Counted from the first letter of the stretch, positions 3,198-16,754 are shown. The stretch is 40,492 bases of DNA from Candidatus Pacebacteria bacterium CG10_big_fil_rev_8_21_14_0_10_56_10 (GCA_002772645.1 PFDK01000003.1:1-40492), one strand, 5' to 3'. The notes: a model not told the origin generated them from the letters alone. Made by a program: numbers and translations.

Positions 3198-3391
3198 TGG
3201 GGGTATTATACGTGGTTGGGGCGGGTAGGGCAGGTAAGGGAGGCAGACGAGTCGAGGTGATCTTCAATCCTGAGGCAATTTAATTATGCCTAATTATGCC
3301 AATGTAGGCATTTTTTAACACCTTTTTTTGGGGTTCTCAAACGATGGGCCGTTAGTGGGCCATTTTGACCCACGCTTTGAAACAGTGTTTT

Positions 3392-4243
3392 TTAAGACAC
3401 TAAAATTTTTGAGGACAAATTGTGAAAGCACGTCAAGGTATTTTGACAAAGTTCGTCGAGTGAAAGGTTGAGTTGATGGTGGAGGTACTGGGCGGTGTCA
3501 GCAACCATCCAGGGTAGGCAAGTTTGGCCGCGGTGTGATTGAGGCGGTAGGAAAGGGGCGTCGGTCTCGACGAGGAGGCGGTCGGGCGGGATCATAGTAA
3601 CCAGCTGGCGCAGGCCGTCGGCACTCGGGTAGGTAACGTTGCCGGCTAGGCCGACGTACGCGCCCAGCTCGAGCGCCTGCTTGAGGTACTTCTCAGGCCC
3701 GGAAACGCAGTGGAGGATGAACGGCCAGCGGCCAGGGTGGTTTTCTTTAAGAATAGATAAAGCGTCCCAGTGGGCCTCGCTGTCGCGGTCCCTGATGTGG
3801 ATGATGACGGGCAGGTCAAGCTTGCCGGCTAGTTCCAGCTGGGCGGCAAAGAGTTGTTGCTGACTGTGCTTGAGCTGTTGGGCCTGGGATGGCACGCTGG
3901 GCAGGCGCAAGTAGTCCAGGCCGGTTTCGCCAACGGCAACAATCAGCTCGCTGCGATCTTTGGCAAGCTCCTCGAGTTCCTGGATGCCGCCGCCATCTTG
4001 ACTATGAATAGGGTGGATGCCGATGACAGCCCCCAGGCCAGGCACTTTAGCGGCGATGTCGATACTACGCCGACTAGTCTCAACGGTAGTGGCCGCCACT
4101 ACTCCACCTACCACCCCTTTTTGTCGAGCGATCTGCCAATGACGGCGCCAATCACCTTCAGGCGGCTGTTGGGACCAAGGCGCGGCCCGACCGCTCCACA
4201 ACGGCTCCAAGTTGTAGTGGACGTGGCTGTCGATGATCCTCAT
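3392..4243 (-). CDS. tatD: TatD family DNase
   Basis: IDSHVH, GIHP, GETGLDY, HIRD, LHC, ETDAPFL motifs; directly downstream of metG (known synteny). Confidence 0.93.
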   Translation of the reverse strand: MRIIDSHVHYNLEPLWSGRAAPWSQQPPEGDWRRHWQIARQKGVVGGVVAATTVETSRRSIDIAAKVPGLGAVIGIHPIHSQDGGGIQELEELAKDRSELIVAVGETGLDYLRLPSVPSQAQQLKHSQQQLFAAQLELAGKLDLPVIIHIRDRDSEAHWDALSILKENHPGRWPFILHCVSGPEKYLKQALELGAYVGLAGNVTYPSADGLRQLVTMIPPDRLLVETDAPFLPPQSHRGQTCLPWMVADTAQYLHHQLNLSLDELCQNTLTCFHNLSSKILVS

Positions 4244-8853: not shown

Positions 8854-9717
8854 GTGCGCGCAAGAGATCACAAGGCCATCATCTCCGATTTTGATGGCAC
8901 TTTGGCCGGCGCCGACAGCGTTATTTCTCAGCCGGTTAGCCAGGCGATCGGTCGGTGGCTGGCCGCGGGCAAGCACTTCTCGATCGGTGCTGACCGGCCT
9001 GCTGCGCGTTCGGGGCAGCGTTAAGGAGCTGGGTCTGACCAATCCCCAGATTGTTCGCGGCGGGGCCGAGATTGTCGAGGCCCAGACCGGCAAGGTCCTC
9101 CACGGCGAGTACTTGGACGCCGGCGAGCTGCGTTTGCTGGTCGAGTTCCTGATTGAGCACCACCTGCCGTTTTTCGCTGAGGAGGGAGAGCATATCTACG
9201 CTGACGACGGCCTGGAGAAAATAGTGGTACCTGTAGGTGTCACCGTCAAACCGCTTGACGAAATGCCTGATGAGCGCATCGCCAAGCTGTTGGTGATCAC
9301 CTCTGATCTTGATGAGCGCCGGGTCAAGCACTTACTGAACGACATCATTGGTCAGCGCCTACCTAGCACACACATCGTCAAGAGCTACAGGCCGTTCCTC
9401 AAAGCCTGGACAGCCACCTCGCAGAGAAAGGCACCAAGCACCTGGCAGCACTGCGGCTGGCCCAGCTGCTAGGCCTGGAACCCGATCAGATCGTCGGCAT
9501 TGGCGACAACCACAACGACTACCCACTGCTGACTGCCTGCGGTTACAAGGTGGCGATGGGCAATGCCCCCGACGAGCTCAAGGAGATCTCCGACTGGGTA
9601 GCGCCGCCGTATTGGGAGGACGGGGTGGCGGAGGCGATTGGTAGGCTAATGAACCAAAGCTCAACTTGCTCACTTGACACGACTATTAAAGGTGCTAGCC
9701 ACACATCATGCTCTTGA
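8854..9717 (+). pseudogene. Cof-type HAD-IIB hydrolase split over three segments by two frameshifts
   Basis: Frame from GTG 8854 gives ISDFDGTL (motif I) and stops at 9022. The middle (PQIVRGGAEI, cap domain) is in the 8891 frame. The C-terminus (TKHLA..GIGDNHND..VAMGNA..EDGVA) returns to the first frame from about 9421 to TGA 9717. Confidence 0.85.
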
Positions 9718-9795
9718 TACTTTCAAGCGGTTAATATGTCCCTCAAACCTGTTCGCTACTCCATTGCAATGTCGGATTTGACCCAAACTTGACTC

Positions 9796-11058
9796 TCAAG
9801 TGTCCAGATACGTCCTCAGCACTTGCTTTTGGGCTCGAAGCGCCGCAGGCGTGCCCAACTGGGAGCGCCAGTTCTCAATTGGTACCTGAGCGAGTATGTA
9901 ACTGAGCAGCGCCTCGGCTTCAGGGTCGACGAGGTAGTAGGTTTGTGTCAGCAGGTGAATTGTGTTGACAGCATTAATCAGAATATGACGGTAGGTATCG
10001 AGGGCTTCGATCTGAACCTGCAGAAGTACCGATCCAGACAGAGTTGTTGTGGTTAGACCAAGAACTTCAAGAAACTCTTGGGTTAGAAACTGATAATAGG
10101 GGTATTCACCGTTGGTAACAGGGCTGAAGTTGGCACTTGGGCCATCTGTTCCCAACCTAACCAGCAGTTCGGCCTTGGCACGGGGCAGCGCCCGTTTGAG
10201 AGCGTAGTCGTGGCTAACACCTCTAAAATCTTGAGGGTCATGAATCTTCCTTTGATACAACAGGTCGTATTTGTCCCATGGCGAAAACCCGCCCCAGATG
10301 GTGTTGTAGCGGTCGAATTGCTGATCCAGCACTGACTCAAAAACCTTGTCAAAAGCGTGTCGTAGTTCGTGGCGCACATTCTGCTGATTGAGAAACTCAT
10401 CATGCTGATCGAGGGTGAAAATCACGGGTATCTTCACGATTGTTCCAGGTTGGGTGGGCAGGGGCTGAGGTACCGTTTTTCTGGTATATGTACCACTACT
10501 GCCCGAAGAACAGCCCAGTGCTTGATAGTCTTCATCCAAACTAATCATTAAGCCCAACGCAAACGGAACAGCCATCACTTGGATTTTCCCTTGAGCTTTT
10601 TGCCCTTCTGTCAGAGTACTAAATACCTGCTTGCCAACTTGTTGAAGCTCTTCAGGTGTCCAGTCAATCAGGTGCTTAGCTTTGAAAGAGGCGTCACTCC
10701 TTTCCGGTTTGAATTTAAGGTAGTAAAGATACTGAAGTAGATGGTAGGCGTCACGGTGATCTTCAATCAGTTGCTGAGCAAACCGCAGAGCAGTATCCGC
10801 ATCAGGGAGCGTTGGCAGTAACTGCTCAACGGCTTGGTTGGCATACTTGACGTTTGGTGAGAGGTGAGGTTGATAAAGCAGTCCGTTTTCAAACGCTTCT
10901 CCCATGAATGCCGCCATTATCAGCCTTGTTTTCGCCATTATCAGCCCTGTTTCGACTTGGCGCGACTTATCCCGATCGCTATTTGTGGGCGCAAGCTCGC
11001 TCTCGTGCTCAGGACTCTGGCTGGCTCTCGATAAAATTCGTTCGTAAACTGACATCAA
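9796..11058 (-). CDS. Hypothetical protein with an HExxH motif (possible zincin)
   Basis: 420-aa ORF; VRHELRHAFD with a downstream Glu (AKAEL); TATAAT 6 nt before the TTG start. Confidence 0.65.
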   Translation of the reverse strand: MMSVYERILSRASQSPEHESELAPTNSDRDKSRQVETGLIMAKTRLIMAAFMGEAFENGLLYQPHLSPNVKYANQAVEQLLPTLPDADTALRFAQQLIEDHRDAYHLLQYLYYLKFKPERSDASFKAKHLIDWTPEELQQVGKQVFSTLTEGQKAQGKIQVMAVPFALGLMISLDEDYQALGCSSGSSGTYTRKTVPQPLPTQPGTIVKIPVIFTLDQHDEFLNQQNVRHELRHAFDKVFESVLDQQFDRYNTIWGGFSPWDKYDLLYQRKIHDPQDFRGVSHDYALKRALPRAKAELLVRLGTDGPSANFSPVTNGEYPYYQFLTQEFLEVLGLTTTTLSGSVLLQVQIEALDTYRHILINAVNTIHLLTQTYYLVDPEAEALLSYILAQVPIENWRSQLGTPAALRAQKQVLRTYLDT

Positions 11059-11108
11059 CTCATGATTATAAACTAGTCATGTGTTGATAGCATTTGATCC
11101 GATCTTGA

Positions 11109-11417
11109 ATTAAGCAGCCGGATTTTTACTTTGAGGTTGGTATTTTGAAGCCTGAAGAGATCACGCGAGTTGGGTACATCGACTTGCCAGACTACCAACA
11201 CGACGCTGTCTACATCATAGACACCAAAACAAGCGACAAGAGCTTCGAGCAATATCTTGACCTAGAAAAGAATCAACATAGCCGTTGGGCAGTGCCTTTT
11301 ACCTATGTGGAAGCAGGCGCATCGTCAACACGCTCTACCAAAGTAGTTTTTGAGACGTCGCGTATAGAAAGTTATTTCAATGCTGGTGTTGGTTCAGGTG
11401 AGCACAACTCGTCTTGA
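11109..11417 (+). pseudogene. Probable 5'-truncated PD-(D/E)XK (RecB/Cas4-like) nuclease fragment
   Basis: The frame reads FYFEV..RVGYIDL..YIIDTKTS, with a TGA at 11106 just upstream and no good start codon. Confidence 0.45.
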
Positions 11418-11475
11418 CTTGCGGTTTGGTCTTGCCCAAGTGGTGAGCTAACCGAGGGTGTTAGCGGCACCGTAA

Positions 11476-11919
11476 CTACCCCTCAATGATGAGCTTACCT
11501 TCCATCCCCAGATGCCGATGGTTGCCGACGCTGCAGTAGAAAAAGACCTCGTCCTGCTCGAAGTCCTCCGGAATGGTGAAGGTGACAGAGTCTGTCTGGC
11601 CGGCAAAGATCCGCTCACTGCGCACGTCCAGCTCATCGATCACAAAATCGTGGACATTTTGAGTACTGTCCACTTTGACAGTCACGGCCTGGCCGCGTTT
11701 GACTCGGATCTCCGGCTGGGAAAACTCGAAGTTGCTCAGTTCCAGCACCACGACGGCTTGTTCGTCAGAAACTTCAGCTTGCTGAGAGGTAACGTCTGGG
11801 TTGTTCGGGACGCTGGGACGTTGGGCTTGAGTGCAGGCGGCCAAGATGAGCGAAGTAGAGACCAGCGCGGCCCCGGTGATGGCCAGACGGCCGGCAGGCA
11901 GTGGTGGCAGAAGTATCAT
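11476..11919 (-). CDS. Cupredoxin (type-1 copper) lipoprotein
   Basis: Lipobox-like LILAAC; ligand pattern H (NVHDF) ... CSVGNHRHLGM. Confidence 0.88.
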   Translation of the reverse strand: MILLPPLPAGRLAITGAALVSTSLILAACTQAQRPSVPNNPDVTSQQAEVSDEQAVVVLELSNFEFSQPEIRVKRGQAVTVKVDSTQNVHDFVIDELDVRSERIFAGQTDSVTFTIPEDFEQDEVFFYCSVGNHRHLGMEGKLIIEG

Positions 11920-12051
11920 CGCAAAAACTCCAGTCGCGCTTTAAGTGTAGCTATCATAATCAAGGAGGCGGTCGTCGGCAAGAGTCAGGTTACAGGTCAG
12001 GTTGCTACCAGCGACACTGCCGGCTGAGGCCAGTTAATGAGCTGGTGCGTG

Positions 12052-12088
12052 TTGCGCCACCGCCCGATTATGACTACACTACGTAGTA
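12052..12088 (+). promoter_or_regulatory. blaI promoter (TTGCGC-17-TACACT) with overlapping operator
   Basis: -35 at 12052-12057, -10 at 12075-12080; operator GACTACACTACGTAGTA at 12072-12088 ends on the A of the ATG. Confidence 0.75.
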
Positions 12089-12510
12089 TGAAGGCAACGG
12101 CGGCCACCGGACCAGGATCTCTGGAGCAACTAGTGCTCAATACTTTATGGGAAGGACGCCGATTAAGCTGTGGCCAAGTGCGCCAGTCACTGGGCCGCCG
12201 GCACCGAAAACGACTGGCCTACACTACCGTGCTGACGGTCCTTGACCGGCTGTACAAAAAAGGAGCGGTGGACCGGCACAAAGAAGGCAGGAAGTTTGTG
12301 TATCGGCCAGCGGCCAGCAGGCGCTCGTACGTCAAGTCTTTGATCCAGGGTACCGTCCGCGGCTTAGTCCATCGATATGGCCAGGAAGCGGTGGTGGCTT
12401 TTATTGAAGAGGCTGATGAACTGACAGAGCCCCCGGCTAGTGATGGGAAAGGTGATGGGGGTGGCGGTGAAAGTGCTGGGAAGGGTGACGGGAAGGGCGA
12501 CGGGCGATGA
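12088..12510 (+). CDS. blaI: BlaI/MecI/CopY family repressor
   Basis: GSLEQLVLNTLW, LAYTTVLTVLDRLYKKG.V.R.KEGRKFVYRP; no CopY-type C-terminal CxC; Gly/Asp/Lys repeat tail. Confidence 0.92.
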   Translation: MKATAATGPGSLEQLVLNTLWEGRRLSCGQVRQSLGRRHRKRLAYTTVLTVLDRLYKKGAVDRHKEGRKFVYRPAASRRSYVKSLIQGTVRGLVHRYGQEAVVAFIEEADELTEPPASDGKGDGGGGESAGKGDGKGDGR

Positions 12511-13436
12511 TCATCACCCGGACGCTGGAAGCCTGTTCACTGGCGGTCAAACTGTTGTCTTCGTACTTGATAGCGCCACGGCAGCTGCTGTGGGTAGCAG
12601 TGGTGTGGTTGGGAGTGTGGGTAGGACTGTCCGTGGCTAAAACGCTCGAGGTCAGGCGCGGCCGAGCTCGGTTGGTGGTCAGGTCCGGCAAACTGCACTG
12701 CTACTTGCTATCGGTCTGTATTCGCTTGGGCCTGCCGGCCCACCAGGTTCAGCTGTTTAGCTCTCGCCGACCGGTGGCGGTAGTGTCGGGGTTACTGTCC
12801 CCCAAGATCACTGTCAGTACCGGGCTAGTGAGCAGTTTGGAGAGGTCTGAACTAGAGGCGGTGTTACTGCATGAGCGCTACCACCTTGAGCACGGCCACG
12901 TGTTGCTGAGGTGGGTACTCGGCGTAGCGGCTCGGACAGTAGTGTTTTTGCCAAGTTTGGGCGATGTGGTCCGGTACTGTCGAGACTGGTGTGAGTTCAG
13001 GGCGGACAGGTACGCTTCCCGAGCACAAGGAACCGACCGGTTTTTGCGCCAGGCCCTGGCCAAGTCCGCCGCTGTCCAAGGCGGTGGGCAAAGTTTCTCG
13101 CTAAGGCAGATTGGCCTGAGCGAACCGGCCTTCGCGGCCGCCAACATCACCGAGCGCGTTGGCTGGCTAAGCGGGGTGGGTGGACCGCGGCTGCGGCTGT
13201 CACTGCGAAAGTTAACGGTATCTGGACTGATAGTCTTGGCTATGTTTGCGTACGGTTGGTTGTATGGCCGTGTTGAGGCGCTCGGGCACGACCCGACGGC
13301 TGTCAGGCTGTGCGCGCAGGCCGGTGAAGCACCGGCGGCCAGCCGCCAATCAGTCCCGGCTTCTTCCAGTCCGGTCCCTGCCAGTTCGTCGTCAACAGAC
13401 CAGTCGTTGTTGTTAATGTCTAGCTTTCAGCCATAA
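12507..13436 (+). CDS. M56/M48 (BlaR1-like) membrane zinc metallopeptidase without a penicillin-binding sensor domain
   Basis: GLLSPKITVSTGL, ELEAVLLHERYH, EFRAD, ITERV motifs; ATGA coupling to blaI. Confidence 0.9.
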   Translation: MIITRTLEACSLAVKLLSSYLIAPRQLLWVAVVWLGVWVGLSVAKTLEVRRGRARLVVRSGKLHCYLLSVCIRLGLPAHQVQLFSSRRPVAVVSGLLSPKITVSTGLVSSLERSELEAVLLHERYHLEHGHVLLRWVLGVAARTVVFLPSLGDVVRYCRDWCEFRADRYASRAQGTDRFLRQALAKSAAVQGGGQSFSLRQIGLSEPAFAAANITERVGWLSGVGGPRLRLSLRKLTVSGLIVLAMFAYGWLYGRVEALGHDPTAVRLCAQAGEAPAASRQSVPASSSPVPASSSSTDQSLLLMSSFQP

Positions 13437-13500
13437 TGGCAATGGCCTGAGGCGCGGCAAGCGAAGTATCAAGGCGGACCATCGAAAGCGAACCATCAGC

Positions 13501-13537
13501 TTGACGATGCCGAGGATAAATACTACACTTTGTAGTA
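13501..13537 (+). promoter_or_regulatory. dsbA promoter (TTGACG-17-TACACT) with a perfect palindromic operator
   Basis: -35 at 13501-13506, -10 at 13524-13529; TACTACA-CTT-TGTAGTA at 13521-13537. Confidence 0.8.
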
Positions 13538-13574
13538 ATAGTGGGTAATCAACACATTTTTTAGAAAGCCTCTC

Positions 13575-14354
13575 ATGCCAAACAATCAAGCCTACTCTTT
13601 CCGATCAAGTATGTCGTTCCTCAACCGCCACTTTGCCCTACTGGTGATCGGGGCGCTGCTGTTCGCGGGCGGTTTCCTGGTAGGGTCGCTGAGGACCGAG
13701 AACCAGCTGTTAAGTCAAGGCGGCGAACCGTCCAGGTCAGCTGGCACGACCGCGGCGGCCGGCACTGCACCAGCCCAGCCACCGGCGCCAGCCCCGGCCA
13801 ACGTGAGCGGCATGCCGGAGCTGGCCGACCAAGACCACGTCCGTGGGGCAGACAACCCGTTAGTGACGCTAGTAGAGTACTCCGATTTTGAATGCCCGTT
13901 CTGCCAGCGCTTCCACCCGACTATGAACCGGGTGCTGGCAGAGTACGGTGACCAAGTGGCCTGGGTATATCGACACTTCCCTCTGAGTATCCACGCCAAT
14001 GCCCAGAAAGCTGCCGAAGCGTCTGAGTGCGTGGCCAAGCTAGGCGGTGAAGAAGCATTCTGGAACTTTAGCGACTTGTACTTCGAGCGGACCACCTCGA
14101 ACGGCACCGGCTTTCCGTTGGATGGACTGGCCGATCTGGCGGCAGAAGTGGGTGTTGACGCCGCGGCTGTTCAGACATGCCTGGATAACGACGAAATGGC
14201 CGACCGCGTTCAAGAAGACGTTGACGGTGGGGCGCGAGGCGGGGTGACCGGCACTCCGGGCACGATCGTGGTGACCGATGGCGGTCCTCAGGAGCTCATC
14301 CCCGGTGCTTTGCCCTATGAGCAGGTGAGCCAGGTAATAGACCGCTACTTGTAG
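13575..14354 (+). CDS. Membrane-anchored DsbA/BdbD-type thiol-disulfide oxidoreductase
   Basis: N-terminal TM, EYSDFECPFC, YRHFPL, AAEASEC, GVTGTPG (cis-Pro loop), GALPY. Confidence 0.93.
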   Translation: MPNNQAYSFRSSMSFLNRHFALLVIGALLFAGGFLVGSLRTENQLLSQGGEPSRSAGTTAAAGTAPAQPPAPAPANVSGMPELADQDHVRGADNPLVTLVEYSDFECPFCQRFHPTMNRVLAEYGDQVAWVYRHFPLSIHANAQKAAEASECVAKLGGEEAFWNFSDLYFERTTSNGTGFPLDGLADLAAEVGVDAAAVQTCLDNDEMADRVQEDVDGGARGGVTGTPGTIVVTDGGPQELIPGALPYEQVSQVIDRYL

Positions 14355-14381
14355 CTAGGACCAGTTTCTACCTGCTGGCGG

Positions 14382-15584
14382 CTAACTGCCTAGCAGTTCC
14401 TCAAAAAAGGCGATGTCTCGGGCCACTACCGTGTTCCAGTCCGGCTGGAGGTTGTGATCGGCGCCGGGGTACTCGAAGTAAGTAAGTTCGATGGGCTCGA
14501 GCAAGGCTGCGGGAGTGCCGTCGGTGAGCTGAGTGCCGTCAGCGGAATTGGTGGCGGTGCCTGGGCTGGGTACGTTGTCCGCAGCCGATTGGACGGCCAA
14601 ACCATCCGCTCGATTCTCCATGATCTGCAGCCGACGATCGTTCTCGGCCGCTACTTTGTCCACCAGCTCGTCGCTCCATTCTTTGAGGGCGGCTTGGTCT
14701 GCCCCGCCGTGGTGGAGCTGGATCGGCCCGACCAGCCGGTCCAGGTGCCGCGTCAAACTAAACTCAAAAACATCGTAGACCTGTTCAAACTCGGCCAGCC
14801 AGGCTCGGGCTGCCTTGCCCTCGTCGTCGTGCTCGTCGCTGAAGAACAAGATAGAGTATGGAAACGGTGCGGTCACCGGCGCCCACAAACTGGTGGGGTA
14901 GGGCTGCTGAAGGATTTCGAGGACGCTCAGGGCTATCTGACCGCCGTTGCTGTGGCCCCACAGCCCCAGTTGGCTGCTGGCCGCCACGAACGGCTGGTCG
15001 TCGCTGGTGACGCCAAACTGCTCGACGCTCTTGAGAAGTTCAATGATGTTGATTGGCTTGACGAACCGAGCTTCCCAAGGATCGACAGGCTCTGGGGCGC
15101 TGTTGCCGAAGCCAAAAAAATCAGGGGCCAGCGTGACCAAGCCGGCTTCGGCAAAGATCTCGGCCGCTCGCCGGGTACCCACCCCTGGCTGGTAGATCTC
15201 CGGCGGCACGAAGCCGCGAACCATGACCACCACTGGCGCCGGCCGCTCGGGATCAAGTCTTACTGGCACCGTTAGCCGACCGCTCATCGGCTTGCCCATA
15301 GTCAGGTACTCAAACTCATAGGCCCTAAAGGTGTTTTCTAAAGCCAGGGTTTTGGTGATCCGGATGGGAGCGGCCCGGTAGCGGCGCTGGGCCAAGTTGT
15401 CAAAACTGTACTCCAGCAATGGCCGCGGCACCGGCGAAGGCAAGCCGCTGAGCTTGAGCGGTGACAGCAGGCCTGACGCCCCCGACAGGATGTCATTCGA
15501 GCTGGCCCACCAGCCCAACACAAAGGATCCGGCGGTGGCAAACATCACCGCCGCTAAGAAGAACAACACGACTCGCCAGGACAT
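14382..15584 (-). CDS. Secreted or anchored alpha/beta hydrolase (S9-like)
   Basis: APDFFGFG, WGHSNGG nucleophile elbow, HHGGAD, YPGADHN. Confidence 0.85.
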   Translation of the reverse strand: MSWRVVLFFLAAVMFATAGSFVLGWWASSNDILSGASGLLSPLKLSGLPSPVPRPLLEYSFDNLAQRRYRAAPIRITKTLALENTFRAYEFEYLTMGKPMSGRLTVPVRLDPERPAPVVVMVRGFVPPEIYQPGVGTRRAAEIFAEAGLVTLAPDFFGFGNSAPEPVDPWEARFVKPINIIELLKSVEQFGVTSDDQPFVAASSQLGLWGHSNGGQIALSVLEILQQPYPTSLWAPVTAPFPYSILFFSDEHDDEGKAARAWLAEFEQVYDVFEFSLTRHLDRLVGPIQLHHGGADQAALKEWSDELVDKVAAENDRRLQIMENRADGLAVQSAADNVPSPGTATNSADGTQLTDGTPAALLEPIELTYFEYPGADHNLQPDWNTVVARDIAFFEELLGS

Positions 15585-15595
15585 AGTAGTAGTAT

Positions 15596-15610
15596 TAGAC
15601 CTGTCGCCAA
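15596..15610 (+). repeat. 15-bp repeat TAGACCTGTCGCCAA, copy 1
   Basis: Identical to 16755-16769. Confidence 0.85.
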
Positions 15611-15617
15611 GTAATAA

Positions 15618-16028
15618 TCATCGCTCTTTTGGGCCCACATACACCACCTCAAACAGGATCTTGTCTGGAGACTCGAACATGATTTGGTAGTAAGTACTGT
15701 TTTCATCGCTGGCATACTCGAGCCTATGCCTGGGGGTACCAAACAGCATAGGCACCCTCAAGCTTTCAAGTAGTTCTCGGACGGCATCGACATCCTGACG
15801 CTCAGCCGTGCCCAGCGCCAGGTGATTAATACCTTTGGCGTCGTAGTTGGCACTGTCGTCGCCGTCAGTCTTGACCAGCCACAGGTCACCGTTGGTTTGG
15901 CTGTGGTATCCCACCACGTGATCAGCCGCAACGATCACTTGCCAGCCCATAAACTCCAGCAGTTGTTGGTAAAAAGACAAGTTGGCAAACTCGATGTTGA
16001 GTTGGAGGTGGGAGAAGTAGGTTTTCAT
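15618..16028 (-). CDS. VOC/glyoxalase family protein
   Basis: FSHLQLN, SFYQQLL..GW, GINHLA, YYQIMFESPDKILFEVV. Start at ATG 16028 (16079 also possible). Confidence 0.88.
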   Translation of the reverse strand: MKTYFSHLQLNIEFANLSFYQQLLEFMGWQVIVAADHVVGYHSQTNGDLWLVKTDGDDSANYDAKGINHLALGTAERQDVDAVRELLESLRVPMLFGTPRHRLEYASDENSTYYQIMFESPDKILFEVVYVGPKER

Positions 16029-16160
16029 GTCGTCAACCGATTGTACCTTAGACGACGTAGAGAACTGGTTTAAAGTCATCAGCACCAATCGGTGCTTGCG
16101 CAGCGGATCGCCGTTAAAAGTGTGGTACAAAATCAGAGTGAATACTTTTGATACAATTCG

Positions 16161-16754
16161 ATGGTGATGACAACTATGAATCGGGTGGCCAGCACCCTCT
16201 ACCGTTCGGCCTCCGCCTGTGCCAACCGGTTGCCCCGCCGCGGCATCAAAACACTGTACCTAACCATAGTAGGCCTGGGACTGGGCTTTGGATTTTCCGT
16301 GACGGTGTTTAGCCAACCGGGAATGACCGCCGCCCAGGACCAGGGAGTTTTTGACCGGCCCCACCAGGCAGTCACAGCCACTTCCTTAACGCTGGAGACA
16401 ACCGTCGCCAATCAGCCGGTAACTTCGGCGCTCACCCCGGGCTTGGTGCCGCTGTGGAAAAGCAAGCAGGTGGTCCACACCGTCGGCTCGGCCGGCTTGG
16501 GAGAGGCGGGCACGGTAGTGCTGGCAGTGGGTGGGCTTAATCCTGCCCACCAGCCGGTAACTAAGCTATCTCTGGGCGAGCAGATCACCCTGACCGGTAC
16601 CAACCAGGGACGCTACCGCTTCACGGTGGTGGAGCTCTATCGTCGGTCTTTCGGGGAACTTAACTTGGCTACCACACATCAGCGGCCTACCCTGGTGCTG
16701 TACACCCCCAGCTCGTTGATCGACACCAACGTCAATGTTGTCATCGGTCGTTAA
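16161..16754 (+). CDS. Sortase-fold protein lacking catalytic His/Cys/Arg
   Basis: TM anchor; VVHTVGSAGLGEAGTVVLAVGG, LSLGEQITL, YRFTV, PTLVLYTP follow the sortase pattern. Confidence 0.7.
   Translation: MVMTTMNRVASTLYRSASACANRLPRRGIKTLYLTIVGLGLGFGFSVTVFSQPGMTAAQDQGVFDRPHQAVTATSLTLETTVANQPVTSALTPGLVPLWKSKQVVHTVGSAGLGEAGTVVLAVGGLNPAHQPVTKLSLGEQITLTGTNQGRYRFTVVELYRRSFGELNLATTHQRPTLVLYTPSSLIDTNVNVVIGR

Follow-up and report, generated by a model that had tools for sequence, protein, structure and literature searches.

In a 40,492-nucleotide stretch of DNA (the window) from Candidatus Pacebacteria bacterium CG10_big_fil_rev_8_21_14_0_10_56_10 (GCA_002772645.1, PFDK01000003.1:1-40492), we identified a regulatory module comprising a BlaI-family repressor, a sensor-less membrane zinc protease of the M56/M48 type and a DsbA-like thiol-disulfide oxidoreductase. 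Based on the shared operators, gene linkage and conserved cysteines of this module and its relatives, we tentatively propose that it is a thiol/disulfide sentinel, in which outward-facing cysteines of the protease replace the penicillin-binding sensor of BlaR1-type proteins and the switch controls the cell's main DsbA. We consider this reading quite possible, though not yet probable. It would make the module a BlaI/BlaR-type system in which both input and output are new. The window corresponds to contig 25 of the genome of this groundwater bacterium, which is 0.95 Mb in size and 94% complete.

The three genes lie on the plus strand. The first (12088-12510) encodes a winged-helix repressor of the BlaI/MecI/CopY family with 140 residues, and its stop codon overlaps the start of the protease gene (12507-13436, 309 residues) in the sequence ATGA, which bears out the translational coupling described in an earlier note on this DNA. 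The third gene (13575-14354) encodes the membrane-anchored DsbA-like protein, with a CPFC active site and a second cysteine pair, C152/C202. The same note had placed one operator over the -10 elements of two promoters, and both sites were recovered. Operator O1 (GACTACACTACGTAGTA, 12072-12088, no strand assigned) covers the -10 of the putative blaI promoter, TTGCGC-17-TACACT (12052-12080, plus strand; -35 at 12052-57, -10 at 12075-80), and abuts the blaI ATG, while operator O2 (TACTACACTTTGTAGTA, 13521-13537, likewise unstranded) covers the -10 of the dsbA promoter, TTGACG-17-TACACT (13501-13529, plus strand). The dsbA promoter was found by a promoter scan; the blaI promoter, whose -35 (TTGCGC) scores under the threshold of that scan, was read from the sequence.

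Both operators contain the palindrome ACTACAC-N3-GTAGT (12073-12087 and 13522-13536), which occurs twice in the window against 0.03 matches expected by chance, a count reached in none of 100 shuffles. A scan of the genome with ACTACACTNNGTAGT at up to one mismatch returned O1, O2 and a single one-mismatch site on contig 9, with no match in the reversed control, so that O1 and O2 are the sole consensus copies. A looser genome-wide scan allowing one mismatch gave 34 matches versus 94 in its control and hence no enrichment, and exact GC-rich palindromes on contigs 9 and 27 look like chance occurrences. A repeat search with 12-nt arms found none, the operator arms being only 5-7 nt long, and an Rfam scan of positions 9500-16500 gave no match. 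In relatives, the -10 hexamer (TACACT or TACAAT) likewise lies within the operator, and the dsbA flanks carry TTGACA-like -35 elements at the same spacing. Since O1 ends at the A of the ATG at 12088, blaI probably starts there and not at 12037, from which the frame is open, and is probably translated from a leaderless mRNA. The distance between operator and blaI ATG is 0-4 nt in seven loci, the window included.

Comparison with related genomes shows that the operator and its association with Dsb-type genes are conserved. Among 100 other genomes of the family, from which the best 29 loci other than the window's own were fetched, BlaI-M56 pairs were present in 17 loci (17 genomes, 15 genera), and the other 12 were weak HtpX-like matches without BlaI. 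In 12 of these 17 pairs dsbA is the next gene downstream; in the genomes of two of the other five, the dsbA ortholog is unlinked, lies on a different contig and is preceded, at 57-64 nt, by the palindrome. In one more of the five, the palindrome stands before a DsbD_2-cupredoxin fusion whose neighbour is a CPC-motif P-type ATPase. The dsbA linkage noted in the window thus recurs in the family, directly or through the operator. No palindrome precedes the dsbA ortholog in three family genomes where no M56 was found. In a sample of the phylum, the protease was detected at E 1e-20 or better in 15 of 401 genomes, always with BlaI directly upstream (16 loci), and the gene order was BlaI-M56-DsbA in four loci and BlaI-M56-CcdA-DsbA in two; in the remainder the genes after the pair encode GILT-like or thioredoxin-like proteins, HMA-DsbD_2 fusions, a CsoR-like protein or unknowns. 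The 31 exact palindromes in 35 oriented loci, window included, comprise 13 before blaI, 11 before dsbA and seven before other downstream genes, and ACTAC-N5-GTAGT occurs exactly, 15-44 nt before dsbA, in 10 of the 16 other loci with a directly linked dsbA. The predicted regulatory link from BlaI to Dsb-type proteins therefore appears as well supported as comparative genomics allows.

Three further observations concern the distribution of the module. In one genome (G030, L076:1498-2729), BlaI immediately precedes dsbA without an intervening M56 gene, dsbA lacks an upstream palindrome, and the locus looks like a remnant left after loss of the protease. In a genome of another family (G251; L040/L055, two copies), the proteases nest with strong support in the clade of the window's family, with 64% identity to L019, which suggests that the BlaI-M56-DsbA module is passed between lineages. 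Small membrane or exported proteins ending in MVGGC are operator-controlled or adjacent at several loci (L049:2542-3276 and 3318-3617; L054:232-498, minus strand; L056:2595-2858) and adjoin proteins with repeated CxxC motifs.

The repressor matches PF03965 at 80.4 bits (cut-off 22.6; E 1.6e-22), and its nearest solved structures are 2g9w, BlaI and MecI. Residues A104-F105 align with N101-F102 of MecI, and F105 is invariant in 17 of 17 sequences. According to the account of MecI, F102 is the P1' residue of the cleavage site (PMC9834060). Against the CopY/TcrY equivalog TIGR02698, the repressor scored 40.1 bits with a cut-off of 121.95. CopY/TcrY repressors have a cysteine-rich metal site at the C-terminus; a CopY-type copper-binding role for this BlaI was rejected, given the absence of a C-terminal cysteine motif and a score far under the cut-off. 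The C-terminal end of the window BlaI (12400-12510) is a Gly/Lys/Asp-rich repeat, GKGDGGGGESAGKGDGKGDGR, which is present in none of 16 aligned relatives.

The protease carries the motifs H122ExxH126 and E163xxxD167 and so retains the gluzincin site that BlaR1 has on the cytoplasmic side. It matches PF01435 (M48) at 39.9 bits (cut-off 20.3) and PF05569 (M56, of the same clan) at 28.3 bits, just below the cut-off of 31, and precomputed Pfam tags on its homologues name both M56 and M48. The Pfam scan found no other domain and specifically no penicillin-binding (transpeptidase-like) sensor domain, in agreement with the earlier note, and the protein ends 54 residues past its last transmembrane helix (TM). 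Because a word-indexed homologue search with the single protease returned only seven proteins, a profile of 18 family proteases was searched against 1.84 billion sequences instead, yielding 576 representatives at E 1e-30 or better; column and cysteine counts refer to the best 150 of these 576, window protease included. H122, E123, E163 and D167 do not vary, and 149 of 150 representatives have His at position 126. With E 1.6e-9, the family profile aligns with residues 105-328 of BlaR1 (8exp_A), a span that runs from helix alpha3 to the final TM ahead of the sensor. An AlphaFold2 model of the window protease (predicted local distance difference test, pLDDT, 82.6; predicted template modelling score 0.74) finds its best structural matches in BlaR1 chains, with Z 12.0-13.2 and a root mean square deviation of 4.3-6.7 A over 183-195 residues.

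These matches bear on a reading in which the protein does no signalling and is either an HtpX-like housekeeping protease sharing an autoregulated operon or part of a beta-lactam response that acts via a separate penicillin-binding protein. The M56 score just under the Pfam cut-off, the NCBIfam result of weak HtpX matches only, and the frequency of separate weak HtpX-like matches among the family genomes are all consistent with it. We nevertheless regard it as highly improbable, given the ATGA overlap, a pairing with BlaI kept in 17 loci, the BlaR1 chains as best structural matches and the conserved P1' Phe of BlaI. The beta-lactam version is further opposed by the finding that no beta-lactamase or penicillin-binding protein gene lies at any operator examined.

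The window protease has cysteines at positions 10, 65, 71, 158, 162 and 269. Two of these were found to be conserved almost as strictly as the catalytic residues H122 and E123 (150 of 150 each): the Cys10 column holds Cys in 147 of 150 representatives, the other three being truncated at the N-terminus, and the Cys269 column in 140 of 150. The earlier note, which had listed all six and singled out this terminal pair, is therefore supported for C10 and C269, whereas C65, C71, C158 and C162 are present yet not conserved. A redox or metal CxxxC motif at C158/C162, beside the zinc ligand E163, was considered and dropped, as these columns hold Met/Leu/Tyr and Phe/Arg/Leu in relatives. An extra N-terminal TM is present in 113 of 147 homologues, so the loop bearing Cys10 sits opposite the protease domain, and the tail bearing Cys269 comes after a TM whose aligned counterpart in BlaR1 is the helix ahead of the extracellular sensor. 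By homology, then, both terminal cysteines are predicted to be external, as had been suggested from the window sequence. Their distances to the neighbouring TMs are tight, with interquartile ranges of 38-40 and 30-32 residues.

The loop almost always has one cysteine and most tails have three, arranged as C-x4-C-x3-C in 58 representatives and C-x5-C-x3-C in 44, with a single Cys in 24. Jointly, one loop plus three tail cysteines occur in 119 proteins and one plus one in 22, and the outward total is even in 142 of 150; the eight odd totals are mostly fragments. The cytoplasmic domain of the same proteins has an even number in 75 (41 of them zero) versus an odd number in 75. Besides Cys, no residue is conserved in the loop or tail, including His and Met, and an alignment of 142 homologous loops shows no conserved Met.

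A similar parity is seen across the organism. Following the logic that relates cysteine parity to disulfide formation (PMC2823432), we counted cysteines in a crude set of open reading frames: among 82 exported or N-terminally anchored proteins, 42 have none, 35 an even number and five an odd number, and among cytoplasmic proteins the number is even in 154 and odd in 220. These counts suggest that the organism forms structural disulfides. The genome encodes two VKOR and four Thioredoxin_4 genes, with one Thioredoxin_4 gene adjoining a DsbD_2 gene on contig 2. The DsbA-like protein of the module matches PF13462 at 71.3 bits and PF01323 at 67.4 bits and has an N-terminal hydrophobic anchor; C107, P108, C110, C152 and C202, and with them the CPFC motif, are invariant in 72 sequences. 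Its close homologues carry the source labels Patescibacteria, Microgenomates or Woesebacteria, and its relatives in the Protein Data Bank (PDB) are 4n30, BdbD (8e-12) and ScsC-type proteins (E 1e-9). It is predicted to be a thiol-disulfide oxidoreductase, acting either as an oxidase or as an isomerase/reductase.

Two features of DsbA stand apart from its active site. The cytoplasmic N-terminus and anchor (13575-13700) are unusually conserved, with the pattern PYS..S...F.N.NF ... GSLWTENQ and with F20, F34, G37, S38 and T41 at 90% or more in the 72 sequences, which hints at a specific intramembrane partner. In two genera the ortholog is circularly permuted (L009:350-1132 in G023; L079/L082, G001:C47:4569-5165), the C-terminal part (query residues ~179-259) being encoded ahead of the CPxC part (~61-176) in one open frame.

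The protease model suggests how outward cysteines might act. It has a helix at residues 2-20 that holds Cys10 (pLDDT 80-87) and another at 263-271 that holds Cys269 (pLDDT ~60-77), and when it is superimposed on BlaR1, residues 2-10 fall at BlaR1 residues 89-93. According to the BlaR1 structural study, EL1 residues 87-94 occupy the beta-lactam groove of the sensor, and their displacement moves helix alpha3 and activates the protease (PMC9834060). In the model, Cys10 would therefore occupy the signalling part of an EL1-like helix, and the cysteine tail would stand at the place of the BlaR1 sensor. A complex prediction for the protease with the soluble domain of DsbA (residues 78-259) scored 0.00, which speaks neither for nor against binding.

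Under the sentinel reading, we hypothesise that Cys10 and a tail cysteine pair as an EL1-tail disulfide made by the DsbA/VKOR machinery, with an additional disulfide within the tail in three-cysteine forms. This tether would hold EL1 as the sensor domain does in resting BlaR1, keeping the protease off. If the bond remained unformed, through too little oxidising capacity, reductants or thiol-binding copper, EL1 would be free, and the protease thus released would cut BlaI at about A104-F105. With BlaI lost, repression of dsbA and of the blaI-M56 operon would end, and several relatives would also switch on a cupredoxin lipoprotein gene. Newly made DsbA could then re-oxidise the sensor and switch the response off, forming a homeostat for envelope disulfide chemistry.

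An alternative is that the cysteines are merely structural, their disulfides stiffening a small ecto-module that recognises another envelope signal (a peptide, a lipid-linked precursor, a host-derived molecule or a partner protein), with dsbA as one envelope-stress output among others. Purely structural disulfides would give the same even parity. A transpeptidase domain is missing from about 94% of annotated BlaR-like proteins, whose signals are unknown, and CenIR of Clostridioides difficile acts on envelope genes with no inducer identified (PMC13492132). The regulon elsewhere in Patescibacteria also includes proteins of unknown function, such as the small membrane proteins ending in MVGGC. 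We consider this alternative unlikely, as the loop and the short, Ser/Pro-rich tail, which is modelled at low confidence, conserve nothing besides Cys from which to form a binding site, and thiol-disulfide proteins make up the overwhelming share of the outputs (DsbA-like, CcdA/DsbD-like, GILT-like and CxxC-repeat thioredoxin-like).

Copper is a more serious rival signal, since cupredoxin genes in relatives also carry the operator. In the window, a cupredoxin (blue-copper) lipoprotein gene (11476-11919, minus strand, 147 residues) is divergent from blaI. Its product matches PF00127 at 30.3 bits (cut-off 21.2), has the lipobox LILAAC and ends in YCSVGNHRHLGM, or C-x4-H-x-H-x2-M, whose C/H/M residues we infer to be copper ligands. 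The divergent arrangement stands as the earlier note gave it, but operator control of the gene is not evident here, as its promoter-like site (TTGCCG-17-TATGAT, 11981-11953 on the minus strand, a consensus match only) lies ~95 bp from O1. In the wider neighbourhoods, dsbA, CcdA and copper-linked genes recur; a cupredoxin gene, with homologues in 23 of 100 family genomes, adjoins blaI in none of the 17 family loci. In one genus (L070/L092 ~1501-1515, G071; L094, G033), the cupredoxin palindrome abuts the -35 of TTGCCA-17-TACACT and does not cover the -10, its arms being kept and its spacer differing between two species; this could reflect a different mode of control.

In the copper reading, the module would be a sensor of the PetRP kind, in which outward thiolates bind Cu(I) and activate the protease, BlaI is degraded, and the outputs are the cupredoxin and a DsbA/ScsC-like oxidoreductase that guards exported thiols from copper. 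Several findings that favour it weigh at the same time against the sentinel proposal. In the eight genomes with both a cupredoxin and BlaI-M56, an exact palindrome lies 39-85 nt before the cupredoxin start in four, two of them from one genus, and a one-mismatch palindrome in two, versus no exact and one mismatched palindrome at 16 cupredoxin loci in the 15 genomes without the pair. The regulon repeatedly takes in copper-linked genes for which an explanation by redox alone has no need, among them the DsbD_2-cupredoxin fusion beside the CPC-motif ATPase and a multicopper oxidase beside one pair (L021). Among sensor-less BlaI/M56 pairs, only PetRP has been characterised to the point where its signal is known, and that signal is described as copper (10.1101/2020.07.31.226407). 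Other counterpoints concern the sentinel itself. The window protein is a short form with no TM before Cys10, so its 26-residue N-terminus, with three basic residues, would need to cross the membrane unaided, and its tail is modelled at pLDDT 51-77. No exact palindrome precedes six of the 16 dsbA genes that are directly linked, and both VKOR genes and three further Thioredoxin_4 genes of the genome have no operator. Finally, operator, regulon and conservation are shown by sequence and comparison, but the proposed bond, the sense in which the switch works and the cutting of BlaI are inferred, and the activating redox state purely so.

Copper sensing gains further from the divergent cupredoxin gene of the window, from CsoR-like and HMA-DsbD_2 genes near operators or the pair (L045, L047, L057), from a DsbA about as near to ScsC as to BdbD, and from the second tail spacing, which is CxxxC in most three-cysteine forms. 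We nonetheless judge it somewhat unlikely. The HMA and CsoR neighbours are almost all found in a separate clade, and the window's clade is the dsbA-linked one. The even parity of outward cysteines would be meaningless for a metal site, and exported proteins avoid odd cysteine counts. No His or Met is conserved near the cysteines, the only Met of the window loop (residues 1-26) is the initiator, and no HMA domain was found in the 94%-complete genome. Of all targets, the main dsbA ortholog of the family recurs most constantly; it is the single match in G022 and in G005. Copper could also act through the same cysteines.

The separate clade is a second group of sensor-less M56 proteases in other families of the phylum (L045-L050, L053, L054). 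Its loop carries CxC, mostly CGC, and its tail four or two cysteines, again with even totals, and the genes adjoin CsoR-like, HMA-DsbD_2 or GILT/thioredoxin-like genes bearing the same operator. These CxC-clade proteases may be true copper sensors.

The thiol/disulfide sentinel can be carried a step further, although we consider the following extension quite improbable. The protease itself would be a DsbA substrate, the EL1-tail bond a covalent stand-in for the docking of EL1 to the sensor, and the co-regulated cupredoxin an extracytoplasmic electron sink that re-oxidises Dsb in a quinone-poor, host-dependent bacterium. If the protease is indeed such a substrate, this would be the first self-contained proteolytic homeostat for disulfide machinery.

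The sensor signal is described as unknown for nearly all of the ~94% of BlaR-like proteases that lack a beta-lactam sensor (PMC13492132), and the subfamily of 576 representatives offers a prediction that mutation can test, namely that two to four outward cysteines are the sensor and Dsb-type proteins the output. If this is true, thiol/disulfide (or copper-thiol) sensing would join the inputs of regulated repressor proteolysis, with a mechanistic parallel to EL1 displacement in BlaR1. The module would also add to the small number of envelope stress circuits predicted for Patescibacteria, a group in which regulators are very few and no cultured model exists, and would probably let the cell monitor its own envelope protein-folding chemistry.

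In the literature, supplementary files aside, we found no description of a BlaI/M56-DsbA circuit or of a cysteine-based BlaR sensor. The closest well-studied systems are BlaR1/BlaI and MecR1/MecI of Staphylococcus aureus (8exp-8ext; PMC9834060), which, as described, share a winged-helix repressor, TACA/TGTA-type palindromic operators over the promoters, a co-transcribed membrane gluzincin with HExxH...ExxxD at the same 41-residue spacing, and a repressor cleavage site with a conserved P1' Phe. Like BlaR1, the window protease has an EL1-like element immediately ahead of the TM entering the protease domain. Unlike BlaR1 and MecR1, it has no transpeptidase sensor and has in its place a 54-residue tail with one Cys (three in most relatives), its EL1 bears an invariant Cys, only one or two TMs precede the protease domain, and the output is dsbA and not beta-lactamase or PBP2a.

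PetR/PetP of Synechocystis sp. PCC 6803, with PetP compared here by its description (10.1101/2020.07.31.226407), likewise combines a BlaI-family repressor with a translationally coupled, sensor-less M48/M56 protease that degrades the repressor in the presence of copper, an inverted-repeat operator with a 5-nt spacer, and a cupredoxin gene (that of plastocyanin) in or beside the regulon. However, copper sensing by PetP has been proposed to occur via two Met in the TM2-TM3 loop, whereas here the conserved residues of loop and tail are Cys. Besides petE and petJ, the PetR regulon is said to hold two small genes but no Dsb protein, and PetR also activates transcription.

On the output side, ScsC and ScsB are reported to be copper-induced, Cu(I)-binding oxidoreductases (PMC10907172). 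The ScsB/ScsC proteins of Salmonella, Proteus and Caulobacter (PDB 4gxz, 6nen, 4xvw) resemble the present system in that a DsbA-fold protein, similar at E ~1e-9, is induced by envelope stress, and the DsbA-like gene of some relatives adjoins a DsbD/CcdA-family membrane protein (L042, L043, L020, L051, L052). The window locus differs in having no DsbD-like partner, in that its gene is the family's main dsbA ortholog, and in being under BlaI/M56 control and not that of CpxRA. In Escherichia coli, failure of DsbA is signalled to Cpx through NlpE and its C-terminal disulfide, and Cpx in turn induces dsbA (PMC6593411). As in the circuit proposed here, an exported protein's own disulfide serves there as a sentinel of DsbA, and copper stress enters the same pathway; that system, as described, uses an outer-membrane lipoprotein and a two-component phosphorelay, whereas here a one-protein sensor-protease would act on a cleavable repressor.

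The last point of comparison is CenIR of C. difficile, together with other atypical BlaIR pairs (PMC13492132; 10.64898/2026.08.03.742534). As these are described, they share with the present system a sensor-less protease with a short, largely unstructured C-terminal tail, an envelope-related regulon and a main target gene just downstream. No signal is reported for CenR, whereas for the module described here the conserved cysteines, together with targets of the Dsb type, suggest a specific chemistry.

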